Numbered from the stretch's first letter, positions 3,010 through 37,733 are shown. The stretch: 64,000 nucleotides of DNA from Patescibacteria group bacterium (GCA_018895235.1 JAHIOM010000010.1:2406-66405), one strand, 5' to 3'. The notes: generated from the sequence alone by a model not told the origin. Numbers and translations are program-made.

Positions 3010-3198
3010 TTAGGCGGCTTTTCGTTTTGATGCAAACTGCTGTTGAAGGTGTGTTTTAAGTTTCCAAATAGCAGATATTATTTTCCGGACATGGTCGTGT
3101 TCTTTGTGCGCAGCGTAACGAAGATATAATAGCGCTCCGATTGATACACCTAAAGACGCCAAAGAGAATATAAATGACAACACAATCAATGTTTTCAC
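3010..3198 (-). CDS. small membrane protein, unknown
   Basis: 62-aa ORF with one hydrophobic N-terminal segment (LIVLSFIFSLASLGVSIGALLYL). No recognisable family. Confidence 0.4.
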   Translation of the reverse strand: MKTLIVLSFIFSLASLGVSIGALLYLRYAAHKEHDHVRKIISAIWKLKTHLQQQFASKRKAA

Positions 3199-3279
3199 TG
3201 CTGTCTCCTTCCCGACTTTTTTAGATTTAAAGGTTCGTTTATTTTTAATTTAGCTATTTATTATAATTTGTCAACTGTT

Positions 3280-4575
3280 TTAGATACCAATGCCTAATTT
3301 TTTAAGCTCTTCTTTTGTAATCTGGCGGTCATCCCAGGGAATCTTTTTACCAGAAACCATCATTAACTGCTCGGTTCCTTTTCCTAAAACTAAAACAATA
3401 TCATTTTCTCCCGCCAGTTTTAATCCTTTTTTAATTGCTTTTCTCCTATCTAAAATTTCGTACAGGTTGGGTAGCTCAAATCCAGTTTTTAAAATACCTG
3501 ATTTTATCTCAGACAAAATCTGCTCTGGATTTTCGTCATATGGGTCTTCATTGGTTAAAATAATTGTATTGGAATTTTGAGCGGCGATTTTGCCTAATAA
3601 GGGCCTTTTCCATTTGTCCCGACCACCGCCAGCCGAACCAAAAACAGAAATAATTTTGTTGTGGGGTAGAAATTTAACGGATTTAAATACCTCTTCATAA
3701 GAATCCGGGGTATGCGCCAAATCAACAATCACTTTAAATGGCTTTTCTATTACTAACTCCATTCTACCTGGTATTGTTTCAATCTTTTCTAAGGCCTTTT
3801 TGCAATTTTCTAAACTTTCCCCCTGCGAGATGCTAATACAAATTGCGGCTAAAGCATTATAAACATTGAATTTTCCTAAAAGTTTTAAATTAAAATCTAT
3901 ATTGTTAATAGAAAATTTTGCTCCTTCTTTTGATTCTTGAATATTTTCTGCAAAAACCATATTTGCCTGCTTATTTTTTGCGCCAAATATTAATTTTCTT
4001 TCTGCTGGAAATTTCATGAAATATTCTACATTTTCATCATCAAAATTAAGAATGTGGTTTTTTTTAGTAGATTTAAACAATCGTCCCTTGCAGAATCTAT
4101 AATTCTCAAAACTGCCATGCGCTTCAATGTGCTCGGGTTTTAAATTAGTAAAAACAGCAGTATTAAAATCAATAAACTTATGGCGATGTTGTTTTATTCC
4201 TTCAGATGTCACCTCCAAAATAGCGAATTTGCAACCAGTCCTAACCGCGTCTTTTAAAAACTGCTGGACAGCAAAACGGCCGGGCATTGTCATATGATAT
4301 GGATTAAGTTGTTCTTTCTCTCCAATTTTAATAGTGGCTGATGTAAGCCAGGCAACTTTGGCGCCATTTTCCTCTAAAATTTTCCCAGCTAACATAACTG
4401 TAGTAGACTTGCCTTTCGTACCGGTTACCCCGATAACAATTAACTTTTTAGAAGGAAAACCATACCAAAAAGCGCTTATGAGCGCTAATTGATAGTGATA
4501 AAGACCCAATAACGATTTTGGGATAATTTTTTCTATTATTTTTTTGAAAGACATAGCGAGTTTAACCCTGCCCAA
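3280..4575 (-). CDS. murE: Mur ligase family protein, MurE-like
   Basis: P-loop VIGVTGTKGKSTT, then EVTSEG..QHRH, and C-terminal LTNEDPYDENPEQI at the position of the MurE DNPR motif. Confidence 0.65.
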   Translation of the reverse strand: MGRVKLAMSFKKIIEKIIPKSLLGLYHYQLALISAFWYGFPSKKLIVIGVTGTKGKSTTVMLAGKILEENGAKVAWLTSATIKIGEKEQLNPYHMTMPGRFAVQQFLKDAVRTGCKFAILEVTSEGIKQHRHKFIDFNTAVFTNLKPEHIEAHGSFENYRFCKGRLFKSTKKNHILNFDDENVEYFMKFPAERKLIFGAKNKQANMVFAENIQESKEGAKFSINNIDFNLKLLGKFNVYNALAAICISISQGESLENCKKALEKIETIPGRMELVIEKPFKVIVDLAHTPDSYEEVFKSVKFLPHNKIISVFGSAGGGRDKWKRPLLGKIAAQNSNTIILTNEDPYDENPEQILSEIKSGILKTGFELPNLYEILDRRKAIKKGLKLAGENDIVLVLGKGTEQLMMVSGKKIPWDDRQITKEELKKLGIGI

Positions 4576-18973: not shown

Positions 18974-19001
18974 TTGACAAGAGTTCCCAAAAAAATACAA
19001 T
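18974..19001 (+). promoter_or_regulatory. sigma70-type promoter (TTGACA-N16-TACAAT)
   Basis: TTGACA at 18974-18979 and TACAAT at 18996-19001. The ATG of the first mini-ORF starts 5 nt after the -10 box. Confidence 0.55.
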
Positions 19002-19005
19002 AATT

Positions 19006-19183
19006 ATGAATGAGGAAGGAAAAGGAAAGCTTGCTTTCATATTCCGACCGAATGAAATAATTATATAGACCAATGGTCTCTATAATTTAATACCATGAAT
19101 GAGGAAGGAAAAGGAAAGCTTGCTTTCATATTCCGACCGAATGAAATCATTATATAGACCGAGGGTCTCTATGATAATAATAA
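19006..19183 (+). repeat. two tandem 89-nt units, each with an identical 20-codon ORF plus a hairpin
   Basis: 19006-19068 and 19095-19157 both encode MNEEGKGKLAFIFRPNEIII. The only difference inside the ORF is ATA/ATC, which is synonymous. Each ORF ends in a hairpin TATAGACC nnn GGTCTCTATA overlapping the stop. Confidence 0.8.
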
Positions 19184-19221
19184 AAGAAGGTTAATTCAAA
19201 AATTACTCAAAAGGTCGAGTA

Positions 19222-19491
19222 GGGGCCTAGGATTTGAACCAGAACCAGATTTAGAAGCCAAAAAATGAGATGATTCCAAGGCGCGACGACCGAAATGTAG
19301 TTTTACACTACATTGAGCAGGAGCAACGCAGAAATCATCCATTTTCTAGCTTTCCTTCGGGCGGAACGAATTCAGACAATCTTCTTCGTTGCTCGTCGCT
19401 CACGATATATTTATATCGCATCGCTCCTCGCGTCTTGAATCTTGCTTGAATTCGTCCCGCTAAATTGGTTTTAGTTCGAATCCTAGGCCCC
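19222..19491. other. 270-nt imperfect palindrome / rod-like structured element (ncRNA or MITE-like), class unknown
   Basis: Outer arms 19222-19254 and 19460-19491 pair over about 32 bp. Several further internal complementarities. Composition is more GC-rich than the surroundings. Confidence 0.6.
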
Positions 19492-19565
19492 AGTCTTAAA
19501 AATTAAAAAACGAGCCCAGGTTCATCGTCCAACAAAACCTGGAGCCGTTAGAAAAAGTGGAGAAT

Positions 19566-19724
19566 ATGCCAGAGGAATACTTAACTCGCTTTATTAACTT
19601 TGATGATGATGATGATCTCGAAGACACAAGCTGGGGGAAAGAAGAAACCGAAGAAGAAGAATCAAAAGAAGAAGGAGACGGAGATGTGGCAGAAGTAAAA
19701 GAGGAAGAAGACGAAGAAGAATAA
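19566..19724 (+). CDS. small hyper-acidic protein (52 aa), unknown
   Basis: GGAG lies 7 nt upstream of the ATG. Sequence MPEEYLTRFINFDDDDDLEDTSWGKEETEEEESKEEGDGDVAEVKEEEDEEE. Followed by a clean terminator. Not in the track (<60 aa). Confidence 0.5.
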   Translation: MPEEYLTRFINFDDDDDLEDTSWGKEETEEEESKEEGDGDVAEVKEEEDEEE

Positions 19725-26876: not shown

Positions 26877-26915
26877 GAGAATATTAAACTATTAATATTC
26901 AAAAGTTATTTCGAA

Positions 26916-26945
26916 CAAAGCCGGGCGTAAGCCCGGCTTTGTTTT
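26916..26945 (+). terminator. intrinsic terminator (AAAGCCGGGC-type)
   Basis: CAAAGCCGGGC gtaa GCCCGGCTTTG TTTT. Confidence 0.8.
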
Positions 26946-27011
26946 GACTAATCGTTTGGTTTTTCTGACATATTATCTGCCGTTAGACCCGGCGCCTCGT
27001 TTGCGTTCCCG

Positions 27012-27215
27012 TCATATGGTCATTCTGCTTTTTCTTAATTGTTTTGCGATGTTTTCCTTTTTTACCTTGGTTTTTAACTGGGCTGCTAACCCATTTCTTT
27101 TTTCTATTGTAAAATATTTGTAGAGCATGTCCATTATCGGATTAATGGTTAATGGCTTTCCATTGTCTATTTTAACCGATAATGACTGCCCTATTTTGTT
27201 ATTACGATGTTGCAC
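27012..27215 (-). CDS. hypothetical small protein (GTG start), doubtful
   Basis: 67-aa ORF from the track. No SD and no recognisable motif. Confidence 0.2.
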   Translation of the reverse strand: MQHRNNKIGQSLSVKIDNGKPLTINPIMDMLYKYFTIEKRNGLAAQLKTKVKKENIAKQLRKSRMTI

Positions 27216-27240
27216 TTCAGAATAGAATGTAGCAGACCGC

Positions 27241-27270
27241 TTGACAAGTCTTTTTGCCTGTTGTTAAAAT
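27241..27270 (+). promoter_or_regulatory. sigma70-type promoter (TTGACA-N18-TAAAAT)
   Basis: TTGACA at 27241-27246 and TAAAAT at 27265-27270. GGAG lies upstream of the ATG at 27312. Confidence 0.55.
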
Positions 27271-27311
27271 AAAGATAGGACCTTGACCTTTTAATATAGA
27301 GGAGAAAAGAA

Positions 27312-33935: not shown

Positions 33936-36900
33936 TTATTGTCCTTCCATTCTCTTTTTCGCCGCCCTAATATTTAAAATTTCTTCTGGCGCGGTGGTGA
34001 TTATCCGATCTTCTGTAGAACTGGCGACAATTTGTATTGCCACGTGTTTTCTACCGGCAAAGAAAATTCCTTCACCGACCGCCGCTTCCAACAATATATA
34101 TTTCTCTTGTTCAGTAATATTAAAAACTTTTTGGACAACATCAATAGTGGCTGGCGATTGTTTAAGCAATAATGTCATTGAAGAATTGGTAATAATTGGC
34201 TGACCATAATCAGATTTCATAAAATCAGCCACATCTTGAGTAATAGTGGTTACCCCTAGCCAGTACTTGCGGGCGCGTTTAGCTAAGCCGAATAAGAATG
34301 AGGCTCCTTCTGTAGTTTGCATCAGCCACCAGGCCTCATCCACAACCAAAATTCTCTTCTTTAATTTTGACCTGACCACATTCCAGATATATCGCATAAC
34401 TATATAAAGGGCCATTGGCCTTAAACTTTCTTCCATATCTCTTATTCCAAATACAATCATGTTTTTATCCATTGTTATATTAGAACGTTGATTGAAAAAA
34501 TCAGCATAAGTGCCTTTAGTGAACTTTTTAATCCTTCTTACTAAAGATTCTGCTCCGGACATGCTTTCTAAAACTTCTTCAAAATCAGACATTAAAGGAA
34601 TGTTTTCCTGCCAGGTTTCAGGCTCTGACTCCGGAGTAATATCGCGGATAGCATAAGTTTCAGTTAAGGCCTGATCTATAATACTATCTTCTTCCGGGCT
34701 TAAACCGCCCAGCATAATTCTTAATAATCCGACTAAATTAATAATATTAGACCTTAAGACGTCTTCCTTGTTCTCGCCTTCAGCCGGAACCGGAAGGTCA
34801 AATGGGTTAAGTTGATGAGGGGAAGTCAGAGAAATTTTAAAGAATGATCCTCCTACTGCGTCAGCTAAAGCCTCATACTCATTTTCAGGATCAATTACGA
34901 TTACGTCTATCCCCTGCATTAAATAGCGTAAAATTTCCAGTTTAATGGCATAGGAATTATGAACAAACATTCCTGCTTGGCCAGCGAGAAAAACCTCATT
35001 GTCCACAGTAAGGTCATAAACATATTTTTCCTTTTTATTTTCAATTTTTTTAATTTCTGTAATTGGATCCCAAAATAGTTCAGAATTAGCTAAAATTTTC
35101 AACTGCTTTAATTTTTCTTCAACCTTCGGGATGTTATTTGTTAAAATACTTTGATAATTTTCCCAAATAAACTGAGCTGATTTTTGAATCATTCCATAAC
35201 AAGTATTGCTTGCAGGCCTCTCAATCAAAGCAGTTTGTAAAGAACAATTATAGTATTTTATCGGAAGTTCCATTTCTCGGAACCCTAAATGGATCGCCGA
35301 TTTTATATTTTCTAAATAAAAAGAATTTCCATTAATAACCTCAATTGCTTTTAGAACATTGTTTGATCTGGGTTCTACTTCTTGATTTTTCATTATCCGC
35401 CAACTTTGGCCTAATGTTTGCCAAAGAGCCCGATTCAATTCTTTATTATTTTTTCCCAGAGAAATTACCGTACTTAAATTTGGAAGTTCTTCCAAGGTTT
35501 TAAAGGTTGAATGTGAATTTTTGAAATGTTGAATTTTTTCTTCAATTTTAGTTATTATTTTTTGGAGATTTTGGGGAGAGGGATGACGGACTTCTCTTTT
35601 CCATTCGGAGATTTCAGGGATTCCGTGTAACTGAAATCCAAATAGCCGATATATTTCTTGAAAGATTAATTCTAACCCAGGGATAAGATCAACATTAGTA
35701 TTTCCTTCTTTTTGAATAATTTCTGAAAGTTGCTTTCTTTTTCTCTCCGAAATAAAATTGATATTTTCGGCAAATTTTCTTAAATTGTCTTGGCCGGAAA
35801 TCGAAATTTTCCAATAAATTCTTTTACGTTTCCAATTAGAATTAGTAGTTTTCTTTTTTGTTTTTGATATTCTTCCTATAACTCCAAAGTAAAATAAAAG
35901 ATAAGCAATTTCTGAAATTAGTTTTTTAGATTTAGATACAGCGCAAATTCCTCCTTTTTCAACTCCTCCGTCACCCTCAAAATAGCCTGAAATATAACTG
36001 GCGATTTTTTCTTTTTCTAAATTAAAAATAAACGGCAAAACTTTTTTTTGGCCCGACTTGTTTTTTCCGCCTAGTGCTTTTATAATTTCTATAAATATCC
36101 TTGAACTAATAATTATTCCCTTGTTTCCGTAAAAAAACGGAACCTCGCATTTTTTAAGAGAAGCATCAAGAGCCCCTAAAACTTCCATGTCTATATTGGT
36201 TATTATCACAGCCCTTTCTGTTATTGTTCCTTCAGCGCATATTAACCCCAATAGTTTCAAAAAATCAGTTGTTACTGGGAAATCAACGGGATAAGTGCAT
36301 CTTTTTTCTCCGGTTTTCGAAACAATTTTAATATCTTTTAGAATTAGGCACGTGGCTTCGATTTTTAAAAAGTCTAAAATTTTCCAGAAATAATCTATTG
36401 GAATTACCCGGTTTTCTTTATACTTATAAAGATACTTGTCTAGTTTTTTATTTAAAATAGATTTTTTTAAAATTTGATAATTCTCTTTAATCAAATTTTC
36501 TCCGCCCGTAACATAAACATTTTTTGACTTCTTAAGAATTTCTAAAAGATTAAGGAATTTTATAGGAGAACCGCTTGCAGAAACATTTCGCGGTAGGGGA
36601 ACGTATTCACCTTTTATTACTTCAGAGCTTTTTGAAACAGTTATCGTCCCATTTTTAAGAATTAGCATATTGTGGTCTCCTGTTGTTGTGATTTCTCTAC
36701 CGCTTCTTGTTTTAAATTTGTAAAAAACATCCGTTGCTTTTTTTCTAGCGGCAACGCTCACTTTTGACCACTCTCCTTTTAGCTCTTTATTAAAGGCGTA
36801 AACTTCAATATCAGGATTAATTACTCCCTCTAATTCTTCGTCGATTTTAGTTAATCCTTGTTTTTTGATTAGTTTTTCTATAACAGGGCCGATTTTTAAT

Positions 36901-37733
36901 AATTGAATTTTACCTTTATTTTTGATTAAAACTGGTTCAGAACCTAAAATGCTTTTTCCACTACCCGCCTTGGCGAAAACGACTGAATTCGCATTCTCTA
37001 AACTGAATCTATCAAACAAAATAAGAGAATTATTGTGACGATTAACTCCGTAAAGAATCCCTTCATTAGAACTTAAATCAAAAGAAATAAAAGGAAAAGC
37101 AGTTGAGAGGGGCGCTGTATCCATTGGCACGTGAATATCAATAAGGTCTAAACCGTAAGGGTTGCAAGAAATAAATCCCTCCCTTTGTTTATAAAGGGCA
37201 GGTTTAATATAAATTAAACGAGATTCAAAAATAGACCTTAAAGTAAGTTCGGTATCTTTTAAGGTTTTTTCTGTGTTTTCATAGATGGTAATATACAGGC
37301 CGAAACGGAACATTCTTTCTTGGGCTGTTTGCAAAGAATCTCGCAGCGCTTCAATATTTTGGTAAGCCATTTGCAGAGCTGGATCGCGGATTAGTCCTTT
37401 TTCTTCTCTTTCCATAATTTCAGAAGAAACCTCAGTAACCTTTTTCCTTAACTTTTTTAAAATCAATTCAGTGCTAATGGGGTGGATATGAAAAGAAATA
37501 TCCATCGGCGTGTTTAAATTAATAACCGGGGATAGCCAGCCGGTATTTAGATATCTTGGGTAAGAAAATATAAAAAAAGACCGAGATAATCGTTCCCCCA
37601 GCTTTAGATGGTTCTGTTCAACCCCCACATAAGGAGGGGCAATTATATCTCTCACATCAAAAGCTTCCTCTTCAAAGATTTTCTCTATGCTTTCTTCCTC
37701 TTTCTTTTTTAAAAAAGGTAACTCAAATTTCAT
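33936..37733 (-). CDS. virB4: VirB4/TraC-type T4SS ATPase interrupted by an intein (260-aa N-extein + 666-aa intein + 339-aa C-extein)
   Basis: N-extein ends FAKAGSGK and the C-extein starts SYAIKLEILRY, so splicing restores Walker A GSGKS. Walker B RILVVDEAWW. N-terminal ...FIFSYPRYLNTGWLSPV... is typical of VirB4. Confidence 0.85.
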   Translation of the reverse strand: MKFELPFLKKKEEESIEKIFEEEAFDVRDIIAPPYVGVEQNHLKLGERLSRSFFIFSYPRYLNTGWLSPVINLNTPMDISFHIHPISTELILKKLRKKVTEVSSEIMEREEKGLIRDPALQMAYQNIEALRDSLQTAQERMFRFGLYITIYENTEKTLKDTELTLRSIFESRLIYIKPALYKQREGFISCNPYGLDLIDIHVPMDTAPLSTAFPFISFDLSSNEGILYGVNRHNNSLILFDRFSLENANSVVFAKAGSGKSILGSEPVLIKNKGKIQLLKIGPVIEKLIKKQGLTKIDEELEGVINPDIEVYAFNKELKGEWSKVSVAARKKATDVFYKFKTRSGREITTTGDHNMLILKNGTITVSKSSEVIKGEYVPLPRNVSASGSPIKFLNLLEILKKSKNVYVTGGENLIKENYQILKKSILNKKLDKYLYKYKENRVIPIDYFWKILDFLKIEATCLILKDIKIVSKTGEKRCTYPVDFPVTTDFLKLLGLICAEGTITERAVIITNIDMEVLGALDASLKKCEVPFFYGNKGIIISSRIFIEIIKALGGKNKSGQKKVLPFIFNLEKEKIASYISGYFEGDGGVEKGGICAVSKSKKLISEIAYLLFYFGVIGRISKTKKKTTNSNWKRKRIYWKISISGQDNLRKFAENINFISERKRKQLSEIIQKEGNTNVDLIPGLELIFQEIYRLFGFQLHGIPEISEWKREVRHPSPQNLQKIITKIEEKIQHFKNSHSTFKTLEELPNLSTVISLGKNNKELNRALWQTLGQSWRIMKNQEVEPRSNNVLKAIEVINGNSFYLENIKSAIHLGFREMELPIKYYNCSLQTALIERPASNTCYGMIQKSAQFIWENYQSILTNNIPKVEEKLKQLKILANSELFWDPITEIKKIENKKEKYVYDLTVDNEVFLAGQAGMFVHNSYAIKLEILRYLMQGIDVIVIDPENEYEALADAVGGSFFKISLTSPHQLNPFDLPVPAEGENKEDVLRSNIINLVGLLRIMLGGLSPEEDSIIDQALTETYAIRDITPESEPETWQENIPLMSDFEEVLESMSGAESLVRRIKKFTKGTYADFFNQRSNITMDKNMIVFGIRDMEESLRPMALYIVMRYIWNVVRSKLKKRILVVDEAWWLMQTTEGASFLFGLAKRARKYWLGVTTITQDVADFMKSDYGQPIITNSSMTLLLKQSPATIDVVQKVFNITEQEKYILLEAAVGEGIFFAGRKHVAIQIVASSTEDRIITTAPEEILNIRAAKKRMEGQ
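34956..36953 (-). mobile_element. intein with LAGLIDADG homing-endonuclease domain, inserted in the VirB4 P-loop
   Basis: Starts SILGSEPVLI (Ser1). Block B is ITTTGDHNML. LAGLIDADG motifs LLGLICAEGT and ISGYFEGDGG. Ends VYDLTVDNEVFLAGQAGMFVHN followed by +1 Ser. Confidence 0.85.

Follow-up and report, generated by a model that had tools for sequence, protein, structure and literature searches.

Bacterial MITEs (miniature inverted-repeat transposable elements) that insert at TA sites, such as the Correia/NEMIS elements of Neisseria, RUP of pneumococcus, and IS630-type MITEs, are short, lack an open reading frame (ORF), carry terminal inverted repeats (TIRs) of 26–32 bp, insert into intergenic or leader regions, and are co-transcribed with adjacent genes, forming long RNA hairpins. 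Their repeat tips are conserved, a TA duplication accompanies them, and their interiors have no conserved structure. The ends of IS200/IS605 elements, PATEs, and attC sites are instead recognized as folded single-stranded DNA (ssDNA), without target duplication and with structure prevailing over sequence. IS200/IS605 elements and PATEs possess subterminal hairpins of 20–140 nt and a conserved target tetra- or pentanucleotide, IS200/IS605 elements show a strong strand bias, and attC sites carry R and L boxes. Patescibacteria are among the most streamlined bacteria, with tiny, dense genomes and very few recognizable transposons. Here we describe a 270-nt element at positions 19222–19491 (+ strand) of a 64,000-nt stretch of DNA from a Patescibacteria group bacterium (GCA_018895235.1, JAHIOM010000010.1:2406–66405; hereafter, the window). 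The element resembles the TA-site MITEs in size, lack of an ORF, repeat length, and location, and resembles the second group in the absence of target duplication and the precedence of structure. In contrast to the Correia/NEMIS and RUP elements, and to classical MITEs in general, its anatomy combines variable tips, no duplication at the resolved insertion site, and a conserved, structured interior. Unlike the IS200/IS605 elements, it has no conserved target tetra- or pentanucleotide, only a weak TA preference at the left end; small subterminal hairpins and R and L boxes were likewise not seen.

REPINs and their constituent REPs, which are associated with the HUH Y1 enzyme RAYT, share with the element an ORF-less, extragenic, dispersed nature and a long imperfect palindrome (PMC3116915). 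Compensatory changes preserve the hairpin pairing in each case, as seen in 26/29 pairs of the closing helix P1 of the element, and both multiply within genomes, presumably via a folded single strand and a trans-encoded enzyme (PMC3116915). REPINs measure about 70–110 nt, consist of a single hairpin of two short REPs, and reach tens to hundreds of copies (PMC3116915), whereas the element is three times larger, folds into a three-way junction with two additional hairpins, has conserved loops and variable tips, and occurs in about 1–3 copies per contig. The GTAG/CGTC-type tag conserved in REPs is present at neither end of the element. RAYT accompanies REPs; for the element, a weak search of 2.2 Mb of flanking DNA gave no RAYT and no IS200/IS608 TnpA-like match. 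By analogy, REPINs and other elements recognized as folded single strands are the closest behavioral analogs.

The nearest related report concerns a different kind of element, the group I introns in Patescibacteria tRNA genes (PMC13011429). These introns share with the element the phylum, a length of 200–300 nt, the lack of an ORF, a structured nature, and exact insertion without duplication, but they lie in sense orientation inside tRNA and rRNA genes, at anticodon-loop position 35/36, match the Rfam group I model, and splice (PMC13011429). The element, by contrast, is intergenic, occurs in both orientations, and has no match among the intron models. Because insertion site, orientation, and model match all differ, its identity as a Patescibacteria group I tRNA intron was rejected. 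The large RNAs ROOL, GOLLD, raiA, and OLE of Rfam are likewise long, multi-helix, strongly covarying, and without known function, and some classes of this type are associated with mobile DNA. In contrast to the element, they are not discrete insertion units bounded by a closing helix, and the element matches none of them in sequence or structure in Rfam 15.

The element belongs to a previously uncatalogued family in Patescibacteria (Parcubacteria-type) genomes, absent from Rfam 15. Its behavior resembles that of REPIN and MITE elements and its anatomy that of a large non-coding RNA (ncRNA). We lean towards the interpretation that it represents a new family of ORF-less, non-autonomous mobile elements recognized by their folded shape rather than by their end sequence. 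The non-autonomous mobile behavior is indicated by four features: its insertion is polymorphic and has exact boundaries, its copies are dispersed, they lie in either orientation without preference, and they multiply within genomes.

Insertion of the element into a leader region

The window derives from a low-G+C (~35%) Patescibacteria-type chromosome near dnaA/dnaN. The local order is ruvB, the gene for an LTD protein, yebC, ruvC, a promoter-like site, two 89-nt units, and the element, followed by a 52-codon acidic ORF and the gene for a class A penicillin-binding protein (PBP) in the PBP1A operon. The features that define the insertion are as follows.

18974–19001 (+): promoter-like site TTGACA-16-TACAAT, 11/12 consensus positions
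19205–19221 (+): last 17 nt of the left flank, ATTACTCAAAAGGTCGAGTA, which in L292–L294 runs directly into AATCTTAAAAAT
19222–19491 (+): whole element, with boundaries from filled versus empty sites (L292, L293, L294, and L022)
19492–19503 (+): right flank AGTCTTAAAAAT, equal to AATCTTAAAAAT of the empty sites with one substitution and no duplicated base

The closest relatives by YebC identity (L292, 84%; L293, 80%; L294, 79%) and the similarly arranged locus L022 have the same promoter, leader, and acidic ORF without the element, and the promoter-like site is conserved in all four. With ^ marking the junction, the empty leaders read ...ATTACTCAAAGGTCGAGTA^AATCTTAAAAAT..., and the filled site reads GGTCGAGTA^270 nt^AGTCTTAAAAAT. 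The individual empty sites are GGTCGAGT(A/G)^AATCTT(T)AAAA(A)T in L292, L293, and L294, and GGTCGAACTA^GTTTAAAAAT in L022. Alignment of the filled GAGTA^...^AGTCTT with the empty GAGTA^AATCTT or GAGTG^AATCTT reveals zero target duplication. The inserted unit is exactly GGGGCC...GGCCCC, bounded by the first and last base pairs of P1 with its edges precisely at the foot of this helix; positions 19222–19491 correspond to the whole unit and to one copy of the family. The element in the window is an insertion into the leader between the conserved promoter and the acidic ORF/PBP1A operon. The presence–absence polymorphism that the preliminary description of this DNA had raised is real, with four relatives holding the empty site. 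Across 85 syntenic RuvC/YebC loci (616 kb in total), two copies were found and 83/85 loci lacked the element; the genomes nearly identical to the window all carry it.

Direct reading of the element agreed with the sequence reported earlier and confirmed the closing 32-bp stem, in which the arms 19222–19254 and 19460–19491 pair with one C·A mismatch, one bulged G, and two G·U pairs. In a repeat search, the outer 26 nt scored as an inverted repeat at 88%. A 19-mer taken from the arm has no further occurrence in the 64-kb window beyond the two arms, against a chance expectation of 0.01 matches. As an RNA, the element folds much better than shuffled sequence on both strands, with –108.1 kcal/mol (z = –9.5) on the + strand and –127.7 kcal/mol (z = –12.1) on the – strand; none of 200 shuffles was as low in either case. 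Its G+C content is 46%, compared with ~35% for the genome. No promoter-like or terminator-like site was found inside the element, and the upstream promoter-like site presumably drives transcription through it. The internal 59-codon ORF at 19270–19449 has no Pfam match, and hairpin indels among the copies disrupt its frame; its coding potential was rejected on these grounds.

The family and its conserved fold

To delineate the family, 80 RuvC-anchored loci from genome bins of the Nealsonbacteria and Staskawiczbacteria types were searched for homologs. Two were found, each at a different location. The copy in L034 lies 8 nt upstream of the TyrRS gene, inverted relative to the window copy, and occupies a divergent TyrRS/PBP spacer that is 24–165 nt long in 12 other genomes. 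The copy in L004 lies between the genes for an LTD protein and a convergent glycosidase. A T-box or aminoacyl-tRNA synthetase leader, prompted by the L034 copy, was rejected since the copies have no common downstream gene, and it is also contradicted by the L004 copy, which faces a convergent gene. Short covariance-model matches in L032, L015, L038, L040, and L062 proved to be ordinary terminator-like hairpins rather than remnants of the element.

Two blocks conserved in the window, L034, and L004 copies, including GTCGCTC, served as the pattern for a metagenome scan. The scan returned 96 loci from groundwater and sediment, of which about 90 were full or partial homologs by nhmmer. Since the retrieval demanded exact matches in two internal loops, the conservation of those loops is partly an ascertainment effect, and the family is probably wider than sampled. 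The 58 distinct full-length copies were aligned for comparative analysis. Identity among the copies ranges from 54% to 99%, with a family median of 69%, and the total length is 266–276 nt in 55/58 copies.

No described RNA family matches the element. Rfam 15 at gathering thresholds yielded no family at the element in a search of the whole window, and searches relaxed to E ≤ 10 for a 901-nt segment spanning the element, or to E ≤ 5 for 18 other copies, gave noise matches only. Two pattern scans of viral contigs returned 0 matches and 107 matches, the latter all due to chance with none confirmed by nhmmer, and neither the INPHARED phage collection nor the PLSDB plasmid collection yielded a blastn match. 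Literature searches turned up no account of an element of this kind.

The consensus fold was derived from the 58 sequences using RNAalifold and manual refinement. It is a three-way junction formed by the closing helix P1, the P2 arm with hairpin hp1, a mini-hairpin, and the P3 arm with hairpin hp2. The parts are listed below in window coordinates.

19222–19253 (+): P1 5' arm, pairing with 19461–19491; sequence variable, length fixed
19254–19277 (+): P2 5' strand, pairing with 19331–19353
19278–19293 (+): purine-rich conserved segment AAGGCGCGACGACCGA inside P2, mean column conservation 84%
19294–19314 (+): hairpin hp1, AATGTAGT...ACTACATT, inside P2, both-side changes in 8/8 pairs
19315–19333 (+): conserved segment GAGCAGGAGCAACGCAGAA (consensus GAGGAGGAGCAACGAAGAA), conservation 89%
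19331–19353 (+): P2 3' strand, pairing with 19254–19277
19354–19360 (+): mini-hairpin CCUUCGG at the P2/P3 junction, two pairs
19362–19384 (+): P3 5' strand, pairing with 19437–19459
19385–19402 (+): pyrimidine-rich conserved segment TTCGTTGCTCGTCGCTCA inside P3, conservation 90%, partly ascertainment because GTCGCTC belonged to the scan pattern
19403–19418 (+): hairpin hp2 (CGATA...TATCG) inside P3, both-side changes in 5/5 pairs
19419–19436 (+): conserved segment CATCGCTCCTCGCGTCTT inside P3, conservation 91%, partly ascertainment by the scan pattern
19437–19459 (+): P3 3' strand, pairing with 19362–19384
19461–19491 (+): P1 3' arm, carrying the GTTCGAATCC string

Across the 58 copies, standard pairs occupy 94.5% of the cells, compared with 78.5% in shuffles, and both sides have changed in 72/84 pairs. 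The covariation score is 0.471, compared with 0.179 ± 0.005 in shuffles, of which 0/500 reach 0.471, and it falls to 0.05–0.10 when the partners are slid by 1–3 columns. The compensatory changes exceed both the shuffled and the slid controls, and the element is an evolutionarily conserved structured nucleic acid.

P1 comprises 29 pairs, of which 26 have changed on both sides, and 95.1% of its cells are paired. Its 5' arm is 32 nt in 51/58 copies and its 3' arm is 31 nt in 52/58. P2, which the preliminary description did not list, covaries strongly, with both-side changes in 16/20 pairs and 95–97% of cells paired; P3 likewise has both-side changes in 16/20 pairs. In the mini-hairpin, 48 copies have C-G at pair 194:201 and 9 have U-A. 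Conservation is lowest in the six outermost pairs of P1 (59%), which nevertheless remain complementary, and highest in the internal loops (84–91%).

Several pairings proposed from the single sequence are supported by compensatory changes in the 58 copies. The complementarity of 19361–19374 with 19447–19460 is helix P3, the ATGTAGT/ACTACAT and CGATATA/TATATCG hairpins both covary, and the supposed CCUUCGGG apex is the two-pair mini-hairpin. The rod-like or pseudoknotted architecture built around them fared differently, as the covariation supports the three-way junction instead. The rod-type pairings would connect the loops of the P2 and P3 arms. Their complementarity is present, but in 19278–19289 with 19425–19436 two positions vary without compensation, and 19315–19333 with 19382–19401 is almost invariant, with one position mostly mismatched. 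In general, the long-range pairings termed x/x', y/y', z/z', and w are present and either almost invariant or uncompensated. The possible partners of 19278–19293, at 19394–19398 and 19428–19436, show little variation. The segment 19315–19333 is complementary to both 19382–19394 and 19423–19429, and its column 141 covaries weakly with both. Individual copies depart from the consensus fold. L277 and L195 carry an additional hairpin of ~21 nt that falls between alignment columns 45 and 71, within the P2 5' strand, and L272 has a 20-nt insert following the GAGGAGGAG segment.

The arms of P1 contain strings that had been read as T-loop-like and as a hint of tRNA origin. The strings are real. CAGGATTCGAAC in the 5' arm is the reverse complement of GTTCGAATCCTG in the 3' arm; together they constitute the best-conserved, subterminal part of P1 and are identical to T-stem/T-loop DNA of real tRNA genes. 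Outside the element, CAGGATTCGAAC occurs only in real tRNA genes in 2.2 Mb of flanking DNA. In the element, however, the strings pair with each other and covary (UUCGAAU/AUUCGAA, UUCUAAU/AUUAGAA, and UUUGAGU/ACUCAAA among the copies), leaving no functional T-loop, and in many copies the heptamer drifts from the T-loop consensus TTCRANY (TTCTAAT, TTTGAGT, and TTGGAAT). ARAGORN identified three ordinary tRNAs far off in the window and no tRNA or tmRNA at 19222–19491, and the Rfam tRNA and tmRNA models (RF00005 and RF00023) did not match the element even at E ≤ 10. A tRNA-derived gene, whether a tRNA harboring a giant insertion, a tmRNA-like molecule, or a split tRNA, would account for the GGTTCGAATCC-like and acceptor-like strings in the arms and for the restriction of the 12-mer to real tRNA genes. 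This explanation is scarcely credible, as the element has neither a D arm nor an anticodon arm, its heptamer is fully paired, and it is multi-copy and dispensable; the failed tRNA/tmRNA tests for a cloverleaf and an unpaired T-loop effectively refute it. Since the strings pair with each other and drift together, the tRNA resemblance looks historical rather than functional.

The exact insertion without duplication, the boundaries at the foot of a helix, and the complex, ribozyme-like fold also raise the possibility of an RNA-mobilized, ORF-less intron-like or retro-element, the transcript of which would be excised at the P1 foot, for instance by self-cleavage or by tRNA-processing enzymes that act on the tRNA-like end of 12 bp, and then re-inserted. 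The outer 12 bp resemble an acceptor and T-stem minihelix, and the window copy has an A after its 3' end. ORF-less group I introns are abundant in Patescibacteria; group II introns reportedly do not occur in them (PMC13011429). Neither a group I nor a group II intron model matched the window copy even at E ≤ 10, and the group I intron core (RF00028) had no match in the 18 other copies at E ≤ 5. The last base is C rather than G, the upstream flank ends in A rather than U, and a T follows the 3' end in 31/58 copies, which does not resemble a tRNA discriminator base. Many copies run antisense to the genes on both sides, and no reverse transcriptase was found among the window ORFs. Such an origin is therefore highly improbable.

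Dispersal, flanks, and other features of the loci

Copies of the family are scattered among unrelated housekeeping genes, in both orientations, and the family multiplies within genomes. No neighboring protein family recurs in more than four loci, and the neighbors include groEL, pnp, infB, pth, hisS, and trmD. The orientation is 18:18 relative to the upstream gene and 24:15 relative to the local gene majority (p = 0.2). With gene orientation as a proxy for replication direction, the element thus shows no significant strand bias, in contrast to IS200/IS605. Five copies are antisense to both neighboring genes, many lie within 1–10 nt of a gene end, and two adjoin tRNA genes. In L261 (8226–8585), the copy is 3–5 nt from a tRNA gene, with tRNA-Ser directly downstream, and in L235 (418–850), two tRNA genes on the strand opposite to the copy enclose it, 3–5 nt away. 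Several contigs carry two or three copies, and copies on the same contig are mutual nearest relatives with 82–94% identity, indicating spread within genomes. L216 (1347–2208) holds a cluster of at least four partial copies on both strands, and L229 (2527–2855) and L270 (13677–13980) hold split copies with additional internal sequence. The dispersed homologs and structural covariation that the preliminary description had suggested seeking both exist.

The ends vary among copies (GGGG, GGAG, AGAG, GCCC, and similar). The flanks show a preference for TA on the left, weak at that end, and for TA or AA on the right. These flanks bear on the classical MITE, in which the element would be a deletion derivative of a DDE-transposase insertion sequence of the IS630/Tc1 type, with TIRs bound as double-stranded DNA (dsDNA) and insertion at TA. 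The preliminary description had listed a MITE with long TIRs among the possible identities, next to a large structured RNA and a DNA cruciform site, and the part of this proposal concerning a short, ORF-less, multi-copy, dispersed, orientation-independent insertion with long TIRs and insertion polymorphism holds. The TA preference on both flanks and the subterminal CAGGATTCGAAC/GTTCGAATCCTG strings, as the best-conserved part of P1, also agree with it. The anatomy does not. The tips are the least conserved pairs yet complementary, no TA duplication exists at the one site resolved against four empty sites, and the compensatory evolution in four internal helices is unexpected for an element recognized as dsDNA. 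Near-identical copies with target-site duplications, envisaged earlier as the mark of a MITE, were not observed, given 54–99% identity and no duplication at the resolved site. The window has no transposase domain, and no larger element bearing the ends of this one came to light. An autonomous partner sharing these ends was rejected, as the end motif occurs elsewhere in the flanking DNA only in tRNA genes. Taken together, a classical MITE is improbable.

Several further observations concern the leader and its surroundings. Directly after the –10 box, window positions 19002–19179 hold two tandem 89-nt units that are 95% identical. Each contains a 20-codon ORF, MNEEGKGKLAFIFRPNEIII, in which the sole difference is synonymous, and a terminal hairpin. 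The units have no copy in the other loci examined except in near-identical genomes; their absence from L292, L293, L294, and L022 indicates a second, independent insertion in the same leader. The 52-codon, very acidic ORF (MPEEYLTRFINFDDDDD...) at 19566–19724, upstream of the class A PBP gene, is kept in 4/4 relatives (52–60 codons) and belongs to no Pfam family. This ORF has its own conserved promoter and, in its leader (19180–19565), the conserved motif ATTACTCAAAGGTCGAGTA/AATCTTAAAAAT. In the element-less L292, a free-standing HNH/NUMOD3 endonuclease gene (3066–3857) separates yebC and ruvC, which are adjacent in the window and most other relatives. Elsewhere in the window, 33936–37733 (–) belongs to a type IV secretion-like cluster and encodes a TraG/VirB4-like P-loop ATPase interrupted by an intein that contains a LAGLIDADG endonuclease domain, and an ORF-free spacer of 435 nt with a GC-rich hairpin follows jag (R3H) at 26877–27311. 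In another genome, the copy most similar to that of the window (L230, 91% identity) is located 36 nt downstream of jag, a position at which the window lacks a copy; the downstream contexts differ between the two. In independent Logan assemblies of three sequencing runs (L285–L287, L290, and L291), the contigs end ~76 nt after ruvC (~19035), within the first 89-nt unit, and in L290 and L291 the next contig begins at the same base within the element (~19288). These breaks have the pattern of sequence repeated in the sample and hint at further copies in that genome.

Proposed mode of propagation and biological significance

The covariance model built on the 58 copies scores the window element at 258.9 bits on the + strand and 148.5 bits on the – strand. 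Sequence conservation and a few conserved G·U pairs favor the window + strand. In contrast, the sporadic mismatches of the A·C and G·U types are about equal in number, with 64 to 42 in P1, 27 to 21 in P2, and 25 to 36 in P3 after removal of a conserved site. Such a near-equal proportion is the ratio of fresh transitions, unlike that in RNA-gene stems under continuous selection. We therefore infer that selection on pairing acts at the time of a copy's propagation, or on both strands, and not continuously on a single transcript.

These signals also bear on the possibility that the copies are stand-alone structured ncRNA genes with a cellular, protein-binding or catalytic function, spread by occasional duplication, with P1 as a processing or closing stem. 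Five helices covary, the internal loops are highly conserved, G·U pairs are conserved on one strand, the length is tightly kept, the G+C content exceeds that of the genome (46% versus ~35%), and a strong, conserved promoter-like site precedes the window copy. The absence of the element from the same locus of the closest relatives and from 83/85 syntenic loci counts against this possibility. Random orientation without an internal promoter-like or terminator-like site, the many copies 1–10 nt from genes or antisense to both neighbors, the clustering of copies from one genome, and the similar frequencies of sporadic G·U and A·C in P1, P2, and P3 likewise argue against it, and we regard it as unlikely. 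The novel large structured RNA proposed in the preliminary description thus stands with regard to its conserved fold, strong covariation, and absence from Rfam, whereas the element behaves as a dispersed insertion.

For the favored interpretation, a mobile element recognized by its fold, we envisage that an enzyme encoded in trans would bind the folded single strand, either ssDNA or a transcript, through its conserved internal loops and act at the P1 base. P1 would then serve as a fixed-length spacer of 31–32 bp, its sequence free to drift as long as it remains paired. Propagation limited to well-folded copies would generate the compensatory pattern. Where the element is transcribed within a host leader or operon, the fold may behave as a self-contained module that reunites the flanks, making the insertion tolerable.

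Several points weigh against this interpretation. The absence of duplication comes from a single filled site resolved against empty sites at base resolution, and about half of the copies are flanked by TA on both sides, which might reflect a TA duplication that has decayed. The exact scan pattern was placed in the internal loops, so their conservation is partly ascertainment. G·U pairs on the + strand are conserved at 207:310 in 44/58 copies and at 103:129 in 28/58. REP/REPIN sequences, IS200/IS605 ends, and attC sites use one or two small hairpins, and by analogy a 270-nt three-way junction with conserved loops is more typical of the anatomy of a functional RNA. With respect to the enzyme, the 53 window ORFs contain no transposase, integrase, or reverse-transcriptase domain, no recurrent gene accompanies the copies, and tblastn with IS200/IS608 TnpA gave no match in the 2.2 Mb of flanking DNA, a weak test.

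It is also conceivable, though quite doubtful, that the element is a self-contained mobile RNA gene, that is, a new large structured and possibly catalytic RNA, the transcript of which would be the agent of its own propagation or the cofactor of a trans-encoded recombinase or nuclease, with P1 as a ruler for the cut sites. If true, the element would represent an ORF-less equivalent of introns, retrozymes, or guide-RNA transposons in the most streamlined bacteria known, and if its active form is RNA, it would constitute a new class of large functional RNA.

The constraint exerted by a 270-nt fold, rather than by the ends, suggests shape-based recognition with a fixed-length spacer helix, a combination for which we know of no close precedent at this size. 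The covariance model identifies the family and could serve to annotate such intergenic orphans, to prevent spurious ORF calls within them, and to search by co-occurrence for the mobilizing enzyme. A gene-less element that spreads in this manner indicates that mobile DNA persists even in the reduced genomes of Patescibacteria.

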